A stretch of 63,738 bases of DNA, filler included, from Intoshia linei (lineage: Eukaryota > Animalia > Orthonectida), in NCBI GenBank assembly GCA_001642005.1. It is 6 parts of 6 records of this genome, joined end to end, with 100 filler letters (N's around TTAATTAATTAA, not from the genome) between each part and the next. Parts side by side here need not be neighbours in the genome. Positions count along the whole stretch, not along the records: positions 11,287 to 36,944 come from LWCA01000492.1; 5 more parts are not named here. One strand, given 5' to 3'. The first letter of the stretch is position 1. Each line of letters begins with the position of its first letter. Shown here piece after piece: positions 3,601-62,330 of the stretch. The notes under the pieces are model-generated. The model was not told the origin of the DNA, ran no database searches, and worked only from the letters and a program-made list of their open reading frames with translations. The translations under genes were made by a program, and so were the position numbers.

Positions 3601-6600
3601 AATATCCAGTTTACGAAGAATTATTTGATAAACTCTTGCACAAATCTATTTTAGAAATTAGGATAATCATCATTTCCATGTACAGGCGATACATACAATC
3701 TGTAAAAAAGGTGTACAAATTTATTAAAATCATAACAATTTATATTTTACAAAAACAGTATTCTCTCCATATTTGCCAGTTTTTTAGTTAACCAATTATA
3801 ATGAATTAATTAAATCTACCGTGAAAATTTTTTTTAGAAAAGTATATTTCGAGGATTTTTATTTGTTATAAGTTATGAAAAGTTTTTAATTAAGATTAAT
3901 AGTACTATTAAATACTTATTGATATGTTTTCCGTGGTTATATTCTTCTATTTGACTAAAGGTACTTTGGCATATATACATAATGTCATAGAGAGATAATT
4001 CTGTACAATTTTGATATTTTTAATGGTTTCAATTAGATTAAAGTCTTCAAGCGTCAAAGAAAAATGTCTGCCAAAACATTTAGCTACAAATTTATCAATC
4101 AAGATTTGAATAAAATTGATCATATCGAGGTAAGTTTACATTAAATTCAGTGGTTGTGGACATGTTAGAGTCTTGCATGTGCAGACCCTCTCCAATTATG
4201 ACTTGGAATGTTTTTTAAAATTATTCATTATCCCAGCGTACCCTGCCCTCCATTTAAATATATTTTCTAATTCACTCATACGTACTCGTCACGTACTTGA
4301 ATTTTTTACAATCCGTACATCACAGTAAAGTAGCTTTGCGCTGGTATTGGTGGAATGGTTGTGAACCACTTTTATTTAAATTATTTAACCCAGCGTTTAT
4401 TAAAGTTTTTTTTCAATCTTACCCTGCTGGATTAAAATAATTTCGCTTATGATACGAAAAATGTATCTAGCACCACTTATTGATGTAGAATAGTAGGATA
4501 CATAATGGTCGGTCTAGTCATATGGACCCTAGTCCTCTACAGTGTAGACTCTACTTTACTCTATACGGCTTTGACAATTATAGACATTTTCAGTACATAA
4601 AATCTTTTTTAAAACATAGTCACTTTTAGTTAAGTCATATTTTCAAATCGTCATTGAAAAATACTTTAACTAGTAATATAAACGATAATTCGATAATTCT
4701 ATAATTACATTTTATAATTATAAATAACAAATTGCAAGACATTTTTATCCAGACAACGTTAAATATAATTGGCAAACTCAGACATTTATACCTTCAATGT
4801 CAAAAACATATATTACCATTCTGTTACCCAATATTTTAAAAATTAATTGATTAAAATGAAAAAATATTCAATAATTAGTAAAAAATAATATAAAAATAAA
4901 AATTAGTTTATTTGAAGAATCATAGATACAATAATAATAACTAATAATTGACTTGAAATTTAAATAAACTAAAATTGACTATACTTTTAATTTTTTCTGG
5001 TTACCCTAGTTAATTTAAAAAGTTTTGTAACTATCGATATTCAAATTTACTTAATTTGAATTGTAATTGTAGTATTTTAATCGCGTTCTGATTTCCAAAT
5101 AAAAATCTATACTACACTCCGTCTACTAATTTTAAAGACAACATGATATTATGATATAGCTTCCTTATTAATGAAGGAATATTTTTGAAGAAATTAAAAT
5201 AAAAAGTTATTAATAAAATAGTTAAAATCACAATAAATGACGTGTCCACAATTATAACAACACTAAGTTTTATTATTAGTATTACTAAATAAGTTATATA
5301 ATGATTGTTTTCAATAGTCAATTGGCTTTTCTCCTACCTTCAATACTTCGATTGCACGATTTTGAATTGAGTTTGTCAGTTTAATAAACGTTGCATCAGC
5401 GATGGTCCACCATGTATTCATTATAGCTATTCGTAGTTTACCTAGATTACTATATTGTTTATTTCCAGCATAGAGTTGTCTGACCATGATACCCCATACG
5501 TTTTCAATGGGGTTAATATCTGGATAGAGAGCAGGCCACTCCATAATATTAGTAAAATGATTATTTAAAAACGTTTTTATTGAGCAAGACGTGTGACAAC
5601 TAGCATTATCTTGTTGAAACACTAAATTTTTCTTCAATTCGTCGCTAGTTGGAAGAATAAGAATCAGGTTTTCCTCTAAAATACTTTGGTATTTGATTGA
5701 ATTTATATTACCGTCAACTTTGACAATACACTTAATACCTCCGCTGGAGAAAGCACCCCAAATGATAATACCTCCTCCACCGAACCTTCTATTAACTCTT
5801 TCTGGAATTTTATCACGCAAATCACATCAATAATAATTGTAATAATCTGGTCCATCCAAATTAAATTTTTTCCAAATGATAATTTTGATATCTATTTTTT
5901 TGTTAAGGTAAGCCTCTGCCCATTTTACATTTGCGAACATTGGAAGAATTTGAGGTATCGGGTTAGATCTAACTAGAATAATATTTGGGCTTGCTTTGAT
6001 CACATTATGAACCGAAGATTTAGACACTTTAATCCTTTTGAGCTCATAATTGCAGCAACATCCCTTACTCCTTGTGCAGGATTAATTATGATTAGTGTTG
6101 TTATAATTTTAGGCACGTTATTTAATGTGATTTTAACTTTTTTATTAATAACTTTTATAATTTTGGTTTTTTCAAAAATATTTTTTTACGATGACAACAT
6201 ATTGACATGCTTATATGGCATGTCAATAATCAAAAAAATATATTGACGAATAAGGAAGTTATGTCACAATATCATGTGGTCTTTAAAATTAGTGGACGGT
6301 GTGTATAAACTAGGTTGGTCCAAGTAAATTAGGGGGTACATTGAAAAAATTTTATCTACCTGAATTATGAAATTTTTCACGCTTACTAATCTTTCTCAGG
6401 AATACCAATAGTAACCAAACCTACAGTATTCTAGCTTCAACCCTCCAGTAAATAAAAATAGGGCTAAAAAGTTTTTACAAACTATGTATAGTGTCATGAA
6501 TCCTAGCATTCTCTACCGATCCTCGAATTGATAATTTAAATTTGAGAAAAAGTAGTTATGATATTGAAAAGTATAATTTTTATACCAATTTTCTCCAAAT

Positions 6601-11308: not shown

Positions 11309-14300
11309 AACGAATCTACACTAAAACTAATTGAAAATTTGACTAAATTAAACGACTGCAATGAATTAGAACAGATCTTTTTACAGAAACTCAAATTCGG
11401 AACAGCTGGTGTTTTATTCAAAATATTTATGGAACCATTGTGTAGATTGGTCGGCATAATTTTATTAATTTTCAAAATTTTTCTAATTTAAATACATTTC
11501 GTATTTTTAAAGTTTATTGGACTCAAAAATTGTGATCCTTATCTACATATATAAGTATATAATATGTATGCAATATTTTTTGTGTGTGTGTTACCGTTTT
11601 TTTTCAATAACTACCAGTGTTAGAATTTTATAAAGTCCACATTTCAATTACCGTTTTTTCCGAGGGTGTTAGTAAAATAAATTTCAACCTCCCAATTTCA
11701 CATCTTACGGGTCAAAAAGCCCAATTGTCATTTTTTTTGAAAATCAAACGAGTTCGAAAATTTAAAAAAATATATTCTCTGATACGAATTTTAAAATCAT
11801 AAATATTATCATAAATTTAAATTTGAAAAAAAATATATCTTTAGGGACAAAACCCAAATTACCTTTTTATTTTTAATGAAAACAGTCTTAGATTTTAAAA
11901 AGACACAATGTCTAGTAAAGTTTTTCGAGGGTGAGCTTTTATCTTAAATTTCATTATCAGAAATTGAATCCTGCAGGATCAAAACCAAAATTACTTTTTT
12001 TTAAAACTAAAATGACTTCTAGAATTTTAAAAAAAAATACAACTGATACAATTATTTCATGTTAATAGTCAGAAAAAAATTCATAAAAAATAAATTCTGG
12101 GATTAGGTTTAAAATCCTTAACATTGTCGTAAATACCAGCTTCAGAAACGCACACATTCATGGTGAAAACCCAAAATTACCCTGTTATAAAATGAAACGT
12201 CCTAAAATTTTATAAAAAAATAAATTTTGGGATAGTTTTTAAAATCAAAAGCATTATCATAAATGGCAACATCAAAAAAGTGCATTTCCAAGATGAAGAC
12301 CCTAGATTACCTTTTTTTAAAAATGAAAAAAGTCCTAGAATTTTAAAACAAGTTATAGATGATCAAGTTATTTCAATTTAATAGACAAATAAATTTTCAA
12401 TCTGACAAAATGACGCCTTCACGATCAAAAAAAAACTTTAATATATTTAGATTCTAAAAAATGATCATTGATTGCCATATTTGAAATTTATTAAATTTAA
12501 AGGTATTAACTCATTCTTTTTAATAGGAATTCGCGCTCCAATGGGCCCAGGATTTGGTTGTTTGAACTATCAAACAATTATTGCCATTAGTCGAGTAAAA
12601 TAGTTAAATATTGTAGAGCAGGCATGTCAAGTAAGCTGACTACTGTGGCCTTGTATATTAAAGTATGTAATTAAAATATGTATTATTATTATTATGTATT
12701 AAAGTATAATAATTTTCGTGTCATTATTTACACAAAATAGAATTTAAATTCAATTCAATTTTAATGTATATACAATCAGGTTCGTGTTTATCCAACAGTG
12801 GGTCCGATCAATAAAAATTATAAAACCCTTATATAAACCTTAAAATTTTTGTGTGTTCCTCATCATTATTTAATACAGCGCGTTTCTGCAACGGTTGTAA
12901 ACTTTTTTTCAGCGTTACCCTACCGGAGTAAAAAAAAATCCCCCACCATGCAAAGTTTTTTCATAATGTCACTGTTTGTTTAACCTATTAATTTATAATA
13001 ATATCTCTCGTCATATGAACTTTTATTTCTCTCCAGGATCTTGTATGTAACAGATATTATGTATTTTCTGTTTATTCGATTTTATAACAAAAAATGAGTA
13101 GTTGTGATGTTGACGATGTTCCATGTGACCATGATGAATTTAACATGATTTTTTTTGAGCAATTTGCCCAAACCCAACCCCGTGCCTAGACGATTCTTTG
13201 AACATTTGAGTAGTATTCTCGTTTCCTCTCTTTAAAGATTAAACCAAAGTTAATGACGAATGTACAAGTTTTTTTTATCCACAAATATGTATTTTTAACC
13301 TAATTACCCAGAGCCGAACTTACCCAGCGTGAGGTCACCGAAAATGACAAATAGACCTATAAAAAAATTTTTTCACAACTTATTCATAGTGTCATAAACA
13401 GTAGTCTTAATGTTTCTCTAAGGTTTTTGATTTGATATTTTAAATTTAACACAAAATATTTATGATATTAAAGAATATAATTTTTTTAATGCTTAATTTG
13501 GAAAAGTGAGGCCCCCATTTTTATAAAAATTGAGAAGAAGTGTCTCCGATGTGGTAGGTTCGGCACTGTAATTACACACATCAGTAGGTTAACTTTACAG
13601 TGCGCGACATAAGTCTTAGGCACCCCCATTGTAATTAGTTTAAACAGTTCTGGTTCATGATTTAAGACATTTTCATTAAATTTAATGATCTATAAATAAA
13701 ATATTATTATTTTTTTAGTAAATGACGCGCATAAGTGACGAAAAAAGATGCAATGTTGTTTCCTTATTCAAGGAAGGAAAAAGTCATGTTTTTATAAGTA
13801 AAACCTTAATAATTTCTCGATATGCGGTTCAAAATATAATTAAAAAATATAAAAAGGGGTTAGGTATAGCTGACTTGCCAAGATCAGGTAGAAAACGCAT
13901 GCTAACATTTAGGATAGAGGCTATTATAAAAAGGAATCAATTAAAAACTCATTCTTGACAGCTTTGGAGGTCAAACACCACTCGAATAATTTCAAAAATC
14001 CATTTTTAAGGACATTGCAACGTGTATTATATAGATTTGGATTATATGGAAGAATTGCAAGTCGAAAACCGTTTCTGAAAAAAATACACAGATCAAAGCG
14101 TTTAAAATGGTGTAAAGCAAAAGTGGCATGGACGAACCAATGACAAAATGTAGCCTTTACTGATGAAAGTAGATTTGAATTGTTTTCAAAAAGGAGAGTA
14201 TATGTACACAGGTACACAAGTAGAAGCATAAAACATAGCCAATCAATTATGATTTGGGGTGGTATTAGGGCAGATGGAAAAAGAATATTTATTAAATGTG

Positions 14301-17300
14301 AAGGAGGAGTAAACGCTCAAGAATACGAGAGAATCCTTGGAAAAGCAAATGAGGAAAATTTTATCCATGGAGTGAAGATGCAGCAAGATGGAGCACCGTG
14401 CCACACAGCAAAGACAACCCGCCGATTTATCAGGGTAAATCGTATAAAAACATTAAAAGATTGGTCCACGCCAAGCCCAGATCTAAATATTATTGAAAAT
14501 ATGTGGAAAATTTTGAAAGATAAAGTTTATAAGCTAAATCCAACCAATTTAAAAGAACTGTGGAGATTTATACAAGAAAATGGGACCGAGTACCTCTAGA
14601 AACTATTTAAGTTTTGTATGCCTCATTGCCCAGTAGAATTGCATCAGTTATACAAAATAAAGGATGGAATACTAAATATTAGTAACTTTGTATATATTTA
14701 TCTAATGTTTTCATTTAATTAACATAATTAATTGTATTATTTTATAGGTGCCTAAGACTTATGTCGCTCGGAATTTTGCAATTCTAATTAAAAATATCTA
14801 TATTTCATTAATTATTAAAAAATTTTTATAGTTTTCGCTTTTTTAGGGTTGTTAAATATTTGTTCTTGATCATAAACTAGATATGATATAATAAAATATC
14901 TTAAATCATGAACCAGGAGCATTTAAATTAATTACAATGGGAGTGCCTAAGACTTATGTCGCCTACTGTACTTTAAATACCTTAAAACTTGTCACCTAGA
15001 CAGAGACATAATTTTGTACGTAGTGCAAAAAAGAAAATCTAGTCTGATAAACAAATACAAGTGTATGTGTTATTTTTTAGTGATTAAAAAGTTTTCTAAA
15101 ATTTATAATACAAATCCTAACTTATATAATGTTTGTTTGTCTGTGTGTATTATCGTTTATTTCAATAACTACTAGTCTTAGAATTTTATAAAGTTCAATT
15201 TCAATTACAGTTGTTTCCGGTGTTAGCAAAATAAATTTCAACCGCCCAAACTCAAACCTTACGGATCAAAAAGCCCAATTGTCTTTTTTTTGAAAATCAA
15301 ACGAATTCGAGAATTTAAAAAAATATATACTCTAATACGGATTTTAAAATCATAAATATTATTGTAGTTATATATCGTTACCATACTAATCGAGATTCGA
15401 ATATATACTTTTGATATAACTTACTTGTGATGTCTAACGGGCAGAGTGGTTATAGTCATATAATTATACTCTGCGTGGCTAGGTTCGAATCGAGATTTGG
15501 GCATGTTTTTATTTAAGATAAACTTATCAGAGTTTTTATCTGCCAATCGTTACAATTATCATAAATTTATATTTAAAAAAAATATATCTTCAGGGACAAA
15601 ACCAAAAATTACCTTTTTTTTAATGAAAACAGTCCTAGAATTTAAAAAAATCTGCAGGTGGTACAGTTGTACCCTATTAATACACACAAAAAATTTCTAT
15701 CTGAATAAGTTACGCCTTTATGGTGAAAAAAGCAGTTTAGTATTCATATTTTTTTTTTCAAAATATTTAATTAAAACAAAAAGTGTGAAATATTTAACGA
15801 TCCGAAAATTATAAAAAATGATTATTCTGATAGAGCTTAATCCAGTTGATATAAATACAAAATTTCAACCACAGACATATACGCATTCCCGGTAAAAAAT
15901 AATTTTGAATATATTATCAACCAATATTTTTTAAATATTTCGATTAAAATAAAAATTGAAAATGTAAATATTAATCCTAATATTTCAAAAAAAAATGTGC
16001 ATTGAACGGCTACACATTTTCAATAAAGAGATATGAGTGAAAATCTATATAAATTATTTTTTCGTTATTTTTTTCATTGCTACGCAATTTTTCAATGTCA
16101 AATTCTCATTTTCGGCAGAGCTAGGTGCTGTTTGTACGTAGTACATAACAGTCAACCTAGTGTATAAAATATAAATATGACACAGCTGAAAATTTTTCGT
16201 AATAATCCATGAAATATGAATTTAGTTTGACATGGCTGTTGTACAATACTATTAAAACGTATTATATAATAATTATTTTTAAAATAGGCATTTGCTTTTT
16301 ATTTAAATACGACTCAAACCCCTAATATTTTAATTGGATATGATACAAGACATAATAGTAAAAGGTTTTCAAAATTTAAAAAACTTTCAATATCAATGAA
16401 TACATAACGAATTTAGGTTTGCTGAAATATGTGGTTTAATAATGCATTCAATGAATGTAAAAACAAACTTATTAGAAAAATATGTCCCAACACCATTAAT
16501 AGTAAACTTGATCATTTTAGTGTTTTATAAATAATAATGTCATCTTTTATAGCAATGGTCGCCAATTATTATATTCAGTGTCATTTCTGGAGATTTAAAA
16601 AAGTTCGGGCCCCTTTGGAAAAAATTTATCGAGAAAAATTTTTTTTAATTTATTAAAAATGCAGAATACTACACTATCTGAAGAAATCAAATATTTTATC
16701 TCGTTCCACTCAGTTTGAACACTGAGTTATAGAATTAGTTGCATTATAATGATTATATACATTTAATAATATGATTATTTAGAGTTTTGGTGTACCACAT
16801 TTTGGATACCATTGGGGAATAATGATTACCGCTTCTCATAACCCACCCATAGATAACGGTTTTAAAATTTACAGTAAAAACGGACAACCAGTAATATTTA
16901 AACCCCATTTTATACGACTTGTGCTCATAGATTTTGAATCATATTGAAACAATTATAGAAAATAATATTAATTTTGATTTTGACAAACCGTATATTGATA
17001 AAATTATCAAAAATTCTGCAGATATATTCCAATTGATCCATCAACAAGATGATGAAAATTTAATCATTAATTTAAAAGAAATAAAACTGGCATACTATAA
17101 CGAAATTGGGTTGTTTTATAATAAATTGTAATTTTTTATTAATTTTAAGCAAAATTAAAATATATTTAAATAGAATTCAAATTGACAAAAACCAGACAAA
17201 AGTAGTATATAGTGCATTTCATGGAGTTGGAAAAATTTATGTTGAGGAATCTTTCAAATATTGTGATATAGATGCTTTAGTTTTTACTAGTAGTCAAGTA

Positions 17301-45030: not shown

Positions 45031-45183
45031 TCATTAATAAACTAGCAGTTTTAATTAATACAATGAAATAAGAAACAATAATGGAATAAATGAATAACTA
45101 ATGCTAAAATTGTAATCAGGAATAAATAAATTATGAAAACTATGTAAAAAATTGTTTAAAATATTGTTAAAAAATAGGTTGTT

Positions 45184-47252
45184 TTGGATATAACTTCGAA
45201 TACTATGAAGTTCCAGTTGAAATGGAAGGGAATTGATCATTCCGGGCCTAAAGTGAATACTGTGGCCGGTAAATCTCCTGATCTAAAAGAAATAGTCGAA
45301 AAGGAGTGGGCTAAATCCACCAAGGCATATTTGTCGAATAAAACACGAAAGGTGGTGGATTTGGGCGCTGTGGCGCCGGATATGAAATACATCGTCGAGA
45401 AATTTCCCGATGTATTTGATTCAAGGCCAGGCCGAACAAAGGAGATCGAACATGAGATTAACGTGATTCCCGGTAAGGAACCCTATCGGGGCCCGGTATA
45501 TGGGGCACCTGGTAACTTGAGAAATAAATTACGTGAACATATTGAGGAAATGTTAAAGTTGGGGATAATTGAGACATCCCGTAGTAATTGGCGAGCTCCT
45601 TTTATGTTAGTGCCTAAGAATGGCGGTAAGGATAGATTCGTCGTAGATTTTAGGGGTTTAAATGATTGAACTGAAAAGAATTTGTTTCCTACCACAAATC
45701 CCACTGAGATGTTTGATCAGTTGAAGGAAGGTCGGGTATTTACCACGATCGATTTGAGTAAGGGATTTTGGCAAGTTCCTTTAAGACCAAGTGACCGGAA
45801 ATACACGGCATTTGCCACCAGTGGGTTGGGCTTAGGTAACAAATTATTTCAATTTAAGGTACTTCCCTTTGGTCTTAGCAATGGTCCCTCAACATGTCAA
45901 AGGTTGAGTGATCGAATTCTGGGTGGAATAGATTGTGCCGTCGCGTATATGGACGATATAATAGTATTCTCTAAATCGCGCAAGGATCACAAACGCGACG
46001 TAGAAGGCGTAGACGCGCGTTGTCAAATTGTAAAGACAAAGACTCGTAGTTACCACCACGAAGGAGTCGGGCTGTTGAGAGATTAAATAGAACGATAAAG
46101 AATCGCTTAATGCCACACCTTTAAGGTCGTTTTGATCGTAACTGGGATCAAAAATTACTAGAGGTATTGTTCGCTATTCGCAACACGGTTTCAGTGGCTA
46201 CTAAGAAAAGTCCGGCCCAAATGGTTTATGGAAAGAATCTAGATTTACCGTGGGATGCCAATAGGACAGGGGTGGTAGTGAATGATCAGGAGCTGAGGAA
46301 CGTGGGTAAATATTACCGGGCTATTATGTCGAAAAATTACGACAAGACGGTTCCAAAACAGCAGGATGTAGAAACGAGAAACTATCGGAATAATGACCCT
46401 GTCCTGGAAAAATTGGATCAGCGAAAGCGGAAAATGTTGGAAGGAAAGAATGATGTTTTCGGCGGGTCGGAGCCAATAGACACTACTGGAAAGTTTTTTT
46501 ATTGTAATCGCGGAGAAATAGAAGGCGATTTTATGGTCAAATGCGATCGATGTAGAAAATGGTTCCATGGTCAATGTGTTGAATTGACTAAAACCGAAGC
46601 AGATAAGTTGGATACTTTCTGTTGAAAGTATTGCGTAAGGCAAAATGGCGCCAGGCGTCGAAGATTACCTTCGAAGTTTAATGATTATATTTTGAATTTT
46701 AAATCTCGCAGGGTAAATAGCAAAAGGATAGATTGCGAACAGTCTGCTGGCCACACACAAAGGATTTGTGATAAATGTGAAGAGGGCACGCAGAAAGTGG
46801 ACAATTTATGGTGCATAATTTGTAGGAAGAATTTCTATCGGCAATGTTTAGCATTGGGTAAGAATATGGTGGGGTGGAATTTATTTGTCTTAACTGCGAA
46901 TATGATGAGGAAGCAGCTGAGAAAATGAGAAGACACCGTTATAATATTAATTATAAGAGAAGTTGAAAATCTTCGTATCAAAATTTCATCAGAGAGTTTG
47001 AAATCTTAGTATCAAAATTTATTTTGGAGTTTGAAATCTTCGTATCAAAATTTTAGTGGTTTTATTTAGAACGTGTTCGAAATGAATGGATCAGCGATCG
47101 ATCTTGGAGGGAGATGTAATAATAAAGCTACAGTATCCAGAGACACTGTTCACTTTATTAATAACCCACTGAAGAATATCACAATTGTAATTTTAATTAA
47201 ATATTTAATTGAATATCGACTTTAATCAGCTCGACCTCTTCGATCCATTACA
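45184..47252 (+). mobile_element. Ty3/Gypsy LTR retrotransposon remnant: RT, partial integrase, two PHD fingers, polypurine tract (PPT) and 3' LTR
   Basis: RT 'WRAPFMLVPK...RFVVDFRGLN', 'IDLSKGFWQV', 'LPFGLSNGP' and 'YMDD'. Integrase end 'ERLNRTIK...WDQKL..VLFAIRN...TKKSPAQMVYG'. PHD at 46490-46634. PPT ggagggaga at 47106-47114, then TGTAAT...ATTACA (47115-47252). Confidence 0.92.
46964..47056 (+). repeat. ~34-bp tandem repeat, about 3 copies, in the Gypsy 3' UTR
   Basis: gaaatcttcgtatcaaaattt core repeated three times. Confidence 0.85.
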
Positions 47253-48473
47253 ACCGTAACCATATTTTACCAAACTGACACTCACTACATTGTGTATTTG
47301 TGTCTGGGTCAAAAATAATTAATTCGACTTCAGGTAACAAAGAAGGAACCGCATACATTTTAATTAAAATACAATCACTGTCCTTATCAACAATTTAAAT
47401 ACGTTGATGCGTAACGATTGGGCATAATATAAATTTCATTTAGAAAATAAAAATAAGGATTATTTAAACATATAGCGTATTGCATTGACAACTACATTTA
47501 CAATTGTAAAGCATTTTTAATGATGATTGGAGTCGATCCGCAAATTCCATAATTGGGCGCCGTATAATTGACACTTCTGTGTAAGGGGCTTCTTTTCCAA
47601 TTTGAATATTTGATAATTTTAATGATTAGTTTTACGTATCATTCAATCTATGTATATTAGGGTGTCACATTTTTTCGAAAATTTTGGAATTTGATAGATG
47701 GTTAGCACTAACCGTGTGTATTTTTAAAAAAGAAACTATAACATAATCAAAAACCACTAACGATAGATATTCGCTGTGCGTTTAACATTTTAAATAAATC
47801 ATTACAAATCTTATAGTAAAATTAAAATATAACTTAATTTTTGTTAAAAACAGTGTTATAGTGAATTGTCATGATTTTCAGAGTATTATGTTAATCACCG
47901 TTTATAACTGACATCTTACTTTTTTAATTTTTATTCTAGCTGTCTTAGTTCGATTTTTATCAACGATTGAATTTCTTAAATTTAGTAAATTTTAGTGTAT
48001 AAATGTAAAGTGAAAAAAAAATTTAGAAATTTCATTTAATAACACAAACATAAACACAAGTAATACTAAAACATCGTGTATATTATTATTAATTTATTAT
48101 TGATGCACGATCGAAAATGAACAATAGACCAAAAAAAAATTTTTTTCACTAACTATGCATATTGTTATATAGCCCTAGCGATCTCTCAAAGGTATTGACT
48201 TGATATTTTAAATTTAACACATACATGCAGTTATGATATTCAAGAATATAATTTTTGATTCATTCGGAAAAATGATGACCCCTTTTTACAAAAATTTCGT
48301 CGAGCTCCCCCCAAGAGGGGCTAGAGTATGTTAGGTTCGGCAATGTATAATATACAGTGTATATATGTATTCCAAATGAAACCCAGTTTTAACGGTTACC
48401 ATTACACAATTGTAGTTTATTTTTAGAAATTATTTGCTCATAGAAAAATAAAGTTTAGCTTTGAAAAATTGAA

Positions 48474-54100: not shown

Positions 54101-56811
54101 TCAGTAATTATAATTACTGAGTCGGTGAAATCACTAATATTTATTATAATTTTATAAAACATTTTATTTAGAATATTTGGGATGTTATATAGTTAATTCA
54201 AATTGTTATCGGAAAAAAAATTACATACACAATGATAAGCATAATGACTTTCATCATCATCACAATAATATTAACTATCGAATGTTCTGCAAAGATAATA
54301 CACAAGGTTAATATTTAGTATATATATTATTTAATAATAATAGTAGAATAAAACAGTCTTTCCCAATGTGAGATTTAGTTTTTTTAATAGGCTACCAGAA
54401 TGTTTTAAAAAAATCAATAGATAGATTTTTTACATAGTGGTATATAATTATATATACTAGTGTAGTATAGTTTTTACTAGGGCTTGGAAATAATTGATTG
54501 CAATCAATTATTTTATATACAACAATTAATTGTTTGCTAAATATTAATTTTTCAATTGATTGATTTATATAAAATAACTAGGTTGACTGTTATGTACTAC
54601 GTATAAACAGGACCTAGCTTTGCCAAGGGCACATTTTTATTATACTTAAAAAATAAATTTATGTTGAAAATCTAACTTAAAAATCCTACTATTCACGATT
54701 ATCAATCCTTTAAAAGAGTGTTTCCCAAACTTGTTTCAGGTGGAACCGTCATATCACATTACTTTTTACTTTATTTGTAAAATTATTCCATCTTAATTTT
54801 GTTTTGCTAACATTTGAGTAAAGAATTATAAAAACAATTTTTATCCCATTTTTTTAATTTATTAGACAGAATGTGTGTATAATATTAAAAATAAAGTAAA
54901 AACAGTCCAATCCTAAAAATTGTCATAAATAGCATAAATTCCAAAAAAATAAAATTAGTCCATTCCTAAAAATGGTCATAAATAGCATAAATTCCAGAAA
55001 AAAGAAAATTATAAAAACCTATTTTGTCATTTTTAATGTGATGATATATTCAGTACCAATTTAATAAATGCTTAAAAATACCAATTATGTATCAATAATT
55101 AATTGTTTTTTTTACCAATACGATGGAATCCGCTTATAAGAGACGTCCGGACATAAGGGACAAAAAACTAGGAACGGAATCAAACGCTTGTTTTGTATAT
55201 AAATCACAGACGGATATAATGGAAAAAAATCCGCTTATAGTGGACAGGTCAAAACAAAGTGTTTTGAAAATGAATTTAATAATAATGCTTGGATGAAAAA
55301 ATAAATTTTTAAACAAACAATTAATTGATTTTATTTTCAATAATTTTTATCAATTAATTCCAATCCCTAGTCCTTAGTATGGATGTTATAATTGTTTAGT
55401 TTTCAGTGGACAATGTCCATTGTTTTACTCCAATGATGGTTAGTTGTGGACAGGCCCAATGATTCATTAATATTTTATTTACTACTTTAAATAATTATAA
55501 TACTTATAAATATATATACATATTTATTATTGTACATTATATAATTATAATATGCATAATTAATCCGTTTTCACGATGTTTGTCTATTAGCTAAGAAATA
55601 AATCGTTCATATATAATATTTGACTAGAAATGAAGGATTTGATTAAATTCTACAGAAACATTTTATTATATTGTCATTCATTTCGATGTAAAGGAAACAT
55701 AGCCTATGTTTCCTATGCTACATAGGTCATAAAAATTATAATTAAAAATAGAAAAAATGATTTACATACATGTAATACCATAATTTAAATATAAAATATT
55801 CTCAAAGGATTATTAATCATTGTCTCCAGTCTTTGAGGGCGAGCTAGGCTTTATAATTTTAATTCTTCATACTTTAAATCGAAATTAAATACGTTATATC
55901 GAATATAATTTAATTTACTTACTTGCATTAATTAATTTTTCACATTTGCAATTATTTTATGACGAGGCCTGGTTGTGGATACCGACTCTTCATTAAATAA
56001 ATATTTACATTGAATTAATAAAAAAACGTATTTTTTTTTTTTTTTTTTTTTTTAANNNNNNNNNNNTTTTTTTTTTTTTTTTTTTTTTCTAAAATTTCAT
56101 ACAATACGTTCCACTACAATGTAGCTAAAAATTTTTATAATTATAAATATAAAACAATTTAGATTCTTCAACGATGATAACTGAAATACCAGTAGATACA
56201 ACCATAATGTCACAATCCACACAACAACCTTGGGTAACTGATCTATGGATACCTGATACCACGCAACCACCGTGGGTCACTGATCCATGGCCACAAGATA
56301 CAACACAACCACCTTTGGTAACTTATCCATGGCCACAATACACAACACCAACACCGTGGAATCCTGATCCATGGCCACAAGATACAACACAACCACCGTG
56401 GGTCACTGATCGATGGCCACAAGATACAACACAACCACCTTGGGTCACTGATCGATGGCCACAAGATACAACAAAACCACCGTGGAATCCTGATCCATGG
56501 CCACAAGATACGACACAACCACCTTGGGTCACTGATCCATGGATACCTGATACCACGCCACCACCGTGGGTTACTGATCGATGGCCACAAGATACAACAA
56601 AACCACCGTGGAATCCTGATCCATGGCCACAAGATACAACACCTACACCGATGAATCCTGATCCATGGCCACAAGACACAACACCAGCACCGTGGAATCC
56701 TGATCCATGGCCACAAGACACAACACCAGCACCGTGGAGTCCTGATCCATGGCCACCAGACACAACACCAGCACCGTGGAATCCTGATCCATGGCCACAA
56801 GACACAACACC
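51181..56811 (+). CDS. Secreted or cell-surface leucine-rich-repeat protein (LRRNT, >20 LRRs, LRRCT) with a Pro/Thr/Trp repeat stalk; 3' end lost in a gap
   Basis: Signal peptide, 'CPIRINNCYC', many LxxLxLxxNxL repeats (exons 51181-51423, 51464-~52494, 52540-52982, 53841-54071) and 'ANNPFICDCNLQWM'. Exons ~54172-54306 and 56163 onward join with matching phase 1. Confidence 0.85.
54478..55369. mobile_element. TIR element (hAT-Ac-like ends) with a nested minus-strand Helitron 3' part (54579-~55110)
   Basis: Ends tagggcttggaaataattgat / atcaattaattccaatcccta. 'a|ctaggttgactgttatgtactacg' at 54579. TSD is degenerate. Confidence 0.6.
56219..56811 (+). repeat. Coding minisatellite, 36-bp / 12-aa unit (WPQDTTQPPWVTDP / NPDP variants), at least 16 units
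   Basis: Repeats of tgatccatggccacaagatacaacacaaccaccgtgg are directly visible. Confidence 0.95.
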
Positions 56812-59933: not shown

Positions 59934-60674
59934 ACATTAATAATAAATAGATTTTAATTATAAGCCTAGAAATTTTTTATCTAAAATCGGGTGTCAAGTG
60001 CTTTTTTCCTACTGTCAGTGTTAATTTAAATAATAAATGTACTAAAAGGCCACATTCCAATAATTTGGAATTGATAAGGCCGCAATGAGATAAAAAAATA
60101 TAATCATATACATGTAGATAGATATTTGCAATTTTTAAAATTGATTATAAATACAAAATTTCTTAAGCTGTTAAATAATATAGATAGAGACGAAAACCAA
60201 TTCAATTAATGAAACTAAAGATTATACGGTTAGTTTTAATGGTCGATAAAAATGTTCTTAAAATTATTACAAAATTAAATATATTTTAATGAGTTTTTTG
60301 ACATGTTTTTCTCAAAGAATATAGAAGATTTGAAATCGTAGATTCGACTTGATAAACATAAAATGTCATTTTTAAAGTTAAGAATTAAAAATTTATTTTA
60401 GTCTAAATTGAAAATGTAAATTAATTCAAAAATAATGAATATGACATTTGTATGTGAAGGCCGAACCAAATCGTCCATAAGGCCGCCCGTTCCCCTTCAT
60501 AATGTACGAGTAATATTTATTTATAATTAAAATATTGATGTTTCAAATTATATCCAGGAAAAATTATAATTGTAACATTAACCATAATTAATTATAATGT
60601 TATAATTATAATATAATAAGACACCTGGGATCGAAAAAATGTTCTATAAAATTAGAGTAATATTATTTATTGTA

Positions 60675-60760
60675 CAGTGCCAGATATAAGTCTTAGGCAC
60701 CCCAATTGTAATTAATCTAAACATTTCTGGTTCATGAATTTAAACTTTTTCTTATATCAT
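60675..60760 (+). mobile_element. Isolated terminus of the 13598 Tc1 family
   Basis: TA|cagtgccagatataagtcttaggcaccccaattgtaatta...ctggttcatga. Confidence 0.85.
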
Positions 60761-60811
60761 ATCAATACCCAAACGGTATCACATCAACGGGTCACAAAAC
60801 GGTATTATTTA

Positions 60812-60960
60812 ATGTTCTAACAAAATTAGAAAATTCTGGTTTAACATTGAAACCAAAAAAATGTCACATTGGAAAAAGTCAAGTTAAAATTTTAGGATAC
60901 TTCATAAGTAAAGATGGTTTGCAAGCTGATCCTGACAAAGTAAACACAATACAGTCATTA
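60812..60960 (+). mobile_element. Gypsy RT C-terminal fragment
   Basis: 'VLTKLENSGLTLKPKKCHIGKSQVKILGYFISKDGLQADPDKVNTIQSL'. Confidence 0.85.
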
Positions 60961-61060
60961 NNNNNNNNNNNNNNNNNNNNNNNNNNNNNNNNNNNNNNNN
61001 NNNNTTAATTAATTAANNNNNNNNNNNNNNNNNNNNNNNNNNNNNNNNNNNNNNNNNNNN

Positions 61061-61621
61061 AAAAAAAAAAAAATTTGAAATAATTAACTGATACAGCTTA
61101 CTCCAGTGATATAAATACAAATTTTTAATTCCAGAAATCTACCCATTACCGGTAAAAAATAATTTTCAATCAATATTTTTCAAATGTTGGATTAATATTT
61201 AAAATGTTAAAATTTTTTATCTTATATTATTTTTTATTTGTTATTGAAAGCAGATACTGAATATACAGTTGATTATACTGTATATTATCACATTGAAAAT
61301 AACTAAATAGGTTTGGAAATTTTATTTTTTTTGGAATTTGTGCTATTTATGATAATTTTTAAAATTGTTACAACACATTCTGTCTAATAAATTACAAAAA
61401 TGATATAAAATTGTTTTTAAATTCTTTACACAAATGTTAACAACAAAATTAAGACGGAATAATTCCCTTTATAGTAAAAGGTAATATGATATGACGGTTC
61501 CACGCGAAATAAGTTTGGGAACCACTTTTGTAAATGATTGATAATAATTAATAGCAGCAAGTTAAGTTAGATTTTTAACTTGAATTTATTTTTTGGTAGA
61601 ATTAAAATGTGCCCTCGGCAG
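61061..61621 (+). mobile_element. Helitron long-subfamily fragment, truncated just before the 3' hairpin
   Basis: Matches 57090-57948 with deletions and ends at 'tgccctcggcag'. Confidence 0.7.
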
Positions 61622-62060
61622 AATTTCAAAAACAGTCGATAAATGAAAATATGATCCGACTCAGAATCAGAAGCAACGAGAATATCATCCATGTATACAT
61701 ATACGAATGGCAAATCAAAAAATAATGAGTCCATTAAACGCTGACAATATGCCGGTTCAACAAGGTTCAATAATGTCAAGTTTTAATAACTTCGTAATTT
61801 CTTTCTTTATTTCAGACTGATCAGAATAAGGCACTCTCCAGATACCAGATTTCCAAGGATGTGACTCTTCTATTAAATCTATAGAACACAAGGCTGACCT
61901 AGATTTCCCTGGAATGTTGCTAAAAATTTCTTGATAAAAAAGAAGTAACGGATTTAGAAATTTAGCTGCAGAACCCCAATTCGACGATTTATTTTCAGAA
62001 TTGGAATAATTAGTTTCCGTAAAATATTGGTCATTCAGATCAGAAACTATATCTGCCAAT
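61622..62060 (-). mobile_element. Gypsy pol fragment, internally deleted RT
   Basis: 'CSIDLIEESHPWKSGIWRVPYSDQSEIKKEITKLLKLDIIEP' joined to 'PAYCQRLMDSLFFDLPFVYVYMDDILVAS'. Confidence 0.85.
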
Positions 62061-62330
62061 GCTAATATGACGGGTTTACGTATACACGGTTCAATACGGT
62101 CAATTTATTAATTTGGCATAATTACAAAATAATTAATTTTTATTAATTAATTATTTTGTAATTATGCCAAAAAAAGTTATAATTGTAAAGAGAGTTTATT
62201 GATTTTTACAAACATTTGGAAAATCATAGTNNNNNNNNNNNNNNNNNNNNNNNNNNNNNNNNNNNNNNNNNNNNTTAATTAATTAANNNNNNNNNNNNNN
62301 NNNNNNNNNNNNNNNNNNNNNNNNNNNNNN

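Follow-up and report, generated by a model that had tools for sequence, protein, structure and literature searches.

Within a 63,738-nt stretch of the Intoshia linei assembly (filler included; hereafter the window), a Helitron-like repeat is interrupted by a 192-bp insert bearing both LTR-type ends and tRNA-type promoter boxes, which raises the question of what kind of mobile element it represents and by which route it might have been transcribed and inserted. The insert (15363..15554, plus strand) begins with TGTA, ends with TACA and lies between perfect ATTAT duplications at 15358..15362 and 15555..15559, in agreement with the letters and coordinates of the initial annotation. Its insertion into a Helitron at a site empty in sister copies, likewise proposed there, can be deduced from six aligned sister stretches: four of them (1161, 11577, 19303- and 20370-) cross the site, lack the 192 bp plus the extra 5 bp and bear ATTAT only once, whereas the alignment of the fifth is cut off there by a gap in the assembly and the sixth loses similarity shortly before that point. 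In line with this, contigs of the public sets X1, X3 and X4 show the empty site by skipping 197 bases, with 5 letters that can be assigned to either flank, the duplication length being read from this one insertion.

The combination of TG..CA ends and a 5-bp duplication had been taken as the mark of an LTR element. By itself, this pattern is not beyond chance, as 12 spans of 80–700 nt from TGTA to TACA with a perfect 5-bp repeat occur in the AT-rich window; what stands is the LTR type of the ends, which contig ends support. The boundaries of the element are proven by the empty sister sites and the contig ends, not by the end letters and the duplication. The terminal inverted repeat comprises only 4 bp, and BLASTN found no second copy of the element within the window (best other E 0.11).

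For characterizing copies elsewhere, six public contig sets (X1 to X6) from two studies (P1 and P2) covering the region were aligned on the element, and the family was found in both studies; X2 is possibly the set from which the window derives. At least 14 contigs of X2 leave the element into unrelated flanks within 2 letters of its 5' end and at least 19 within 2 letters of its 3' end. On the 5' side, 10 contigs do so at 15363 and four at 15362; on the 3' side, 12 do so at 15554, four at 15555 and three at 15556. The counts one or two letters beyond the ends fit chance extension in AT-rich flanks, and the peaks at 15363 and 15554 establish TG..CA as the family ends. Flank agreement at these loose ends is low (0.47–0.64 in the 11 of 53 rows listed), corresponding to differing flanks, and the unrelated flanks are long at both ends (median 108–255+ letters). 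Accordingly, the claim of a multi-copy family is corroborated by these junction contigs and a single-copy element is excluded; the element belongs to a multi-copy interspersed family, a property required for membership in the Helenus group discussed below. Summed depth reaches 660–700 in the end bins, compared with 9–14 on long contigs whose flanks are unique. These values suggest tens to about 100 copies, an order of magnitude only, as summed depth is no copy number. No match to a 22-base motif from the window was found among contigs of metagenomes and viruses.

One contig of 1047 nt contains a complete copy (29 differences, 4 gaps; about 83% identity) between flanks of 455 and 396 letters, and a copy with the same counts is present in both X3 and X4. 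The window's own 5' junction is present without difference in X3, which stems from the other study (15333-15408; the left flank comprises 30 letters, whereas bridging required 31). At eight listed places, the window copy differs from nearly all other copies. A single variant copy, which differs at 15478 and has an additional A after 15514, prevails in X1, X4, X5 and X6 within abundant contigs of 143–834 nt. There, non-LTR sequence of 461 letters precedes it and 75–661 letters follow, but it hardly occurs in X2; it may represent one copy in an abundant transcript or in a larger repeated unit. Besides, summed depth in X2 at 15386-15433 exceeds that of the remaining element two- to threefold, for which overlapping short contigs or a related repeat sharing that part come into question. 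The X2 flank letters adjoining the element, taken from consensus rows only, tend towards pyrimidine (T/C) on the left and purine (A/G) on the right, a hint of a symmetric target preference.

In the interior of the element, a decayed tRNA-like region of 72 nt (15432..15503, plus strand) can be aligned gap-free with genuine tRNAs of 72 nt whose boxes are equally spaced. It comprises an A box at 15439..15449, starting with G in the window copy and with the canonical T in most copies (1358 of 1390 depth units in X2), and a B box, GGTTCGAATC, at 15482..15491, which is the only strict B box in the window. A run of five T at 15506..15510, 3 nt after the tRNA-like region, is predicted to be the likely Pol III terminator, and no variant is listed for it among the contig copies. 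From the A box to the B box, the span is 52 nt end to end, and an A and B pair at tRNA spacing was found once in 60 order-2 Markov windows. When the box pair at a spacing of 25–40 nt was sought in prokaryotes, 108 of the 118 matches listed from 120 loci were inside tRNAs called by ARAGORN, and the commonest span among the matches listed (34 of 118) was likewise 52 nt. Although 97 of these 118 listed matches are labelled tRNA-Cys, this isotype was not applied to the animal element.

The predicted A-box-like motif, B box and pairing ends within 15430-15504 were thus all recovered. In tRNA register, the window copy forms 6 of 7 pairs in the acceptor-like stem (P about 0.025), 1 of 3 in the D stem, 3 of 6 in the anticodon stem and 2 of 5 in the T stem, the D and anticodon pairs being counted by hand. 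Hence, neither the anticodon nor the D or T arm is preserved by this measure in the window copy, consistent with the earlier remark that a clear anticodon arm is missing. ARAGORN and Rfam (E<=10 and gathering score) called no tRNA or other credible family on the element, and the minimum-energy fold of the tRNA-like part consists of two hairpins (z about -3) and no cloverleaf. The tRNA-like part is a promoter relic and no working tRNA. With the majority letters of the copies at 15439 (T), 15501 (A) and 15505 (C), the A box becomes canonical, two pairs improve and the acceptor-like stem is lengthened. Because most copies keep both boxes, with the better A box and stem, the tRNA-like part is no one-off SINE insert but integral to the family unit, by which a loss of the boxes in other copies and a separate SINE confined to this copy are both excluded. 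Exceptions are a contig of depth 123 with two A-box changes and another of depth 24 in which 15419-15483, including the A box, is replaced by 13 other letters. By hand count, minor variants of at least 5% in X2 affect 4 of 21 box places versus 9 of 103 elsewhere, in a variant listing that seems to omit the outermost 30 or so letters of each piece; being no rarer in the boxes than outside, they give no sign of selection on the boxes. As a side observation, the 10-mer AATCGAGATT occurs twice in the element, at 15388-15397 and 15488-15497, 100 nt apart, the first copy adjoining a B-box-like GATTCGAATA.

The element thus belongs to a dispersed family of 192-bp units that end in TG..CA and contain A and B boxes of the tRNA type, with 5 bp duplicated at the target. 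Probably, it is what remains, as a solo LTR, of a small LTR retrotransposon without coding capacity, i.e., a Helenus-like TRIM, predicted to be transcribed by Pol III. According to Kojima 2024 (PMC10886601), Helenus comprises the TRIMs with tRNA-like LTRs (tRNA-type TRIMp3), whereas Ajax is the 5S type; hence, the initial annotation had misassigned Ajax as tRNA-bearing, a feature that belongs to Helenus. Hosts of animal Helenus are bivalves, brachiopods, nemerteans, fishes, chalcid wasps and a ctenophore, representing six animal phyla, and Table S1 of that work gives, by hand counts, 115 animal families with LTRs of 104–323 bp, a target duplication of 4 bp in all 113 families for which one is listed and no known interior for 8 of the 115 (PMC10886601). 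Following the same source, Helenus keeps the boxes and loses the arms, and solo LTRs are numerous.

The anatomy of the element resembles this group in several respects. Its 192 bp fall within the animal range given in PMC10886601, TG..CA ends are combined with a short target duplication, and the tRNA-like part of the window copy has retained both boxes without folding into a tRNA. Judged by eye from its position, 15363..15431 (plus strand) is a putative U3-like 5' part upstream of the tRNA-like region, in a layout as in animal Helenus LTRs, and 15511..15554 (plus strand) a putative U5-like 3' part ending in ATCGTTACA, similar to the ends of Helenus LTRs. Many animal Helenus LTRs, likewise by eye, have a T run after the tRNA part and GTTACA or GCTACA ends, and the majority loop letters TTGTA of the element recall the Thr(UGU)-like loop of Mytilus Helenus, a weak 5-letter hint (PMC10886601). 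In contrast to animal Helenus, the target duplication amounts to 5 bp (ATTAT, 197-base net insertion; one insertion) instead of 4 bp, and the element is far more AT-rich. Comparing five element motifs with Data S1 of PMC10886601, four had no match and the fifth occurred only in an unrelated wasp interior.

A tRNA-like LTR together with a 5-bp duplication, as in the element, is described in PMC10886601 for fungal and Selaginella Helenus, some families of which are known as solo LTRs only. The fungal families are linked by their PBS to Copia helpers, and the host of the element differs in being an animal, as is evident from SoxB and alpha2delta-like genes. An animal example with a 5-bp duplication is Ajax from nemerteans (PMC10886601). 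Like Ajax and the plant Cassandra, which are non-autonomous LTR elements with a Pol III promoter in the LTR, the element is a candidate non-autonomous LTR element with a predicted Pol III promoter in its LTR; unlike their 5S-derived boxes A/IE/C (PMC10886601), it carries tRNA-type A and B boxes and has no 5S match in Rfam. Among all these elements, that work describes Pol III transcripts as shown only for Cassandra. In sum, the element fits Helenus LTR anatomy and would work like Helenus, but it is not filed under animal Helenus proper because the 4-bp duplication fails and the interior is unproven. The proposal of a Pol III-driven, TRIM-like and possibly new family thus holds for the LTR-type ends, the multiple copies and the integral tRNA-like part, not for the novelty of the class: with six animal phyla already on record for it, novelty is confined to the host and the 5-bp duplication. 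A literature search, mostly without subscription papers and Repbase/Dfam, yielded no report of this family or of animal tRNA-type TRIMs with 5-bp duplications, and a database entry is possible.

From this anatomy, a replication cycle can be proposed. In a two-LTR parent, TFIIIC would bind the boxes in the 5' LTR and Pol III would start near 15432. Occasionally, as the weakest step, Pol III may pass the T5 run, continue through PBS, interior and PPT and stop at the T5 run of the 3' LTR, by which the tRNA-like 72–75 nt would become the R region. However, the T5 run directly behind the tRNA part would halt Pol III early, which counts against this cycle. Reverse transcriptase and integrase would be borrowed from an autonomous LTR retrotransposon; integration left the 5-bp duplication at the TG..CA ends, and recombination between the LTRs would then produce the solo LTR. 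The landing in a pre-existing, older Helitron copy is directly evident. The 5-bp instead of 4-bp duplication hints at a helper integrase other than that of animal Helenus.

Regarding such a helper, BEL and some Gypsy clades make 5-bp target duplications. Within the window, a deleted Gypsy remnant at 45178-46928 (reverse transcriptase PF00078, integrase tail, PHD finger PF00628) is followed, within 47105-47252, by a PPT, GGAGGGAGA, and a 3' LTR candidate starting with TGTAAT at 47116 and possibly ending with TTACA at 47252. The presence of a remnant with PPT and LTR start implies that candidate helpers exist. The suggested comparison with the ends of autonomous LTRs turned out negative for this only Gypsy LTR candidate of the window, which is unlike the element (best local score 37 versus a shuffle mean of 31 and maximum of 55). 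Close by, 47411-47421 has 11 letters in common with the 3' end of the element and no longer similarity, and within 47405-47600 (minus strand), brief stretches recall an LTR end (CCAATCGTTAC), a PBS of the tRNA-Lys type and, loosely, a B box, without significant alignment to the element.

Complete Helenus elements have two LTRs around a short non-coding interior, with less than about 1.3 kb in total, a PBS behind the 5' LTR and a PPT ahead of the 3' LTR. Among 130 X2 contigs, the search for a two-LTR copy gave one joint and no go-back joint. This test has low power for young near-identical copies, as contigs from the interior would share only about 30 letters with the LTR and the rows are consensus lines. 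No TGG-type PBS start was found among the 3' loose-end rows listed, which are consensus rows. A PPT in a purine-rich upstream row of X5 was not accepted, this being a two-contig consensus with an uncertain tie rule (P about 0.05). As the abundant downstream flank in X1, X5 and X6 shows by eye no pairing with the tRNA-like 3' end of the element or its presumed 5' end, self-priming is not claimed.

These results bear on other readings of the family. It is rather unlikely that the solo LTR stems from an LTR retrotransposon that is autonomous or, if non-autonomous, large (LARD-like), and that acquired the head of a tRNA or SINE in its LTR at some time; transcription would then be by Pol II, the boxes being passengers or TFIIIC sites. 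Identical ends and a target duplication would be expected from such a parent as well, the T5 run after the tRNA part would block a long Pol III transcript, the boxes are without excess conservation among the minor variants, and the variant dominating X1, X4, X5 and X6, preceded by 461 nt or more and followed by as much as 661 nt, could be attached to a long interior. The sequence after this variant, however, starts without a TGG-type PBS, and its near absence from X2 shows that it is not the family majority. Moreover, the window's only Gypsy LTR candidate (from 47116) is dissimilar, while size and layout of the element match Helenus.

Less credible still is a 192-bp unit that is mobile alone without any two-LTR form, i.e., an LTR-shaped Pol III-promoter cassette helped by an LTR-type (or Ginger-type) integrase. 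All copies with visible flanks do look single, with long unrelated sequence at both ends and without a go-back joint. On the other hand, a Pol III transcript from 15432 to the T5 run would miss 69 nt upstream and 44 nt downstream, so that reverse transcription cannot rebuild the ends without a second LTR. DNA transposons need a longer terminal inverted repeat than 4 bp, which the element does not offer. Helenus families known as solo LTRs only are explained by recombination in PMC10886601. Comparably improbable, and the most novel proposal, is an independent animal TRIMp3 with a 5-bp-cutting integrase and no normal tRNA primer site which, in its boldest form, would dispense with the two-LTR stage and spread as a single LTR-shaped Pol III cassette via a 75-nt tRNA-shaped RNA closed by a 9–10-bp stem.

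A tRNA-derived SINE, a PIF/Harbinger-type MITE (T-TGTA..TACA-A, duplicating TTA) or a SINE insertion into an LTR restricted to the window copy is very improbable and largely refuted: the window letters alone permit a TTA duplication and A and B boxes are typical of SINE heads, but other copies end at 15363 (10 versus 4 at 15362) and 15554 (12 versus 7 further out), the tRNA part lies 69 nt inside two fixed ends without an A-rich or simple-repeat tail, no 5' truncations cluster at the tRNA start among the rows listed, and the full-length copy at about 83% identity spans all parts. Correspondingly, a PIF/Harbinger MITE with TTA/TAA duplication and terminal inverted repeats was rejected on account of the family ends and the inverted ends of 4 bp only. 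SINE2 elements share tRNA-type A and B boxes without a tRNA fold; with a 5' tRNA head, a variable 3' tail and a variable target duplication, they differ from the element, which has fixed TG..CA ends on both sides, an internal promoter and no tail, and this class was rejected as well.

If the preferred reading as the solo LTR of a Helenus-like TRIM is true, TRIMs with a Pol III promoter gain a small and very AT-rich animal genome as a host, and the 5-bp footprint of a tRNA-type family from an animal would support Kojima's idea of repeated independent births or helper switching. The element alone leaves the known picture unchanged, and its novelty is modest. It does sharpen a question concerning the whole class, namely how a Pol III transcript passes a T5 terminator directly behind its promoter; passages on Cassandra in PMC7215508 and PMC10853983, and a passage of PMC12859917, do not explain terminator read-through. 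In practical terms, such copies can inflate counts of tRNA pseudogenes.

The interrupted host is a Helitron-like repeat at 15115..16160 (plus strand), deduced from sister alignment and end features and present in several copies within the window. Its first letters are TC (15115), its 3' end is formed by a hairpin plus CTAG (16157-16160), and its target lies between A and T; the CTAG boundary is common to three of the four aligned 3' ends. We take these features to fit a non-autonomous Helitron. Directly upstream, a Tc1/mariner-type remnant at 13596-14970 (DDE_3 at 14144-14596) has inverted ends of about 86 bp; another DDE_3 remnant lies at 5311-5826 and a related end at 60664-60763. The host repeat is located upstream of exons of a phosphoglucomutase (PGM) gene confirmed by Pfam at 16783 and beyond. 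Two frames further upstream, at 11309 and 12502, gave no match in Pfam and presumably represent the PGM N-terminus, from which we infer that the host repeat resides in an intron of the PGM gene. The window has a GC content of 21–34% and encodes SoxB, VWA/alpha2delta-like, cyclophilin, RGS and phosphoglucomutase-like genes besides Tc1-type DDE and Gypsy remnants. In a homologue search with SoxB, of whose 4655 hits 120 were listed, every listed hit apart from the window's own protein covers no more than 38% of the query, essentially the HMG box. More Gypsy-like reverse transcriptase fragments at 60721-62104 (minus strand) are split by Helitron-like pieces and gaps, and an ORF at 56153-56811, which enters an assembly gap, encodes a 14-residue unit repeated in tandem, with many P, W, D and T residues.
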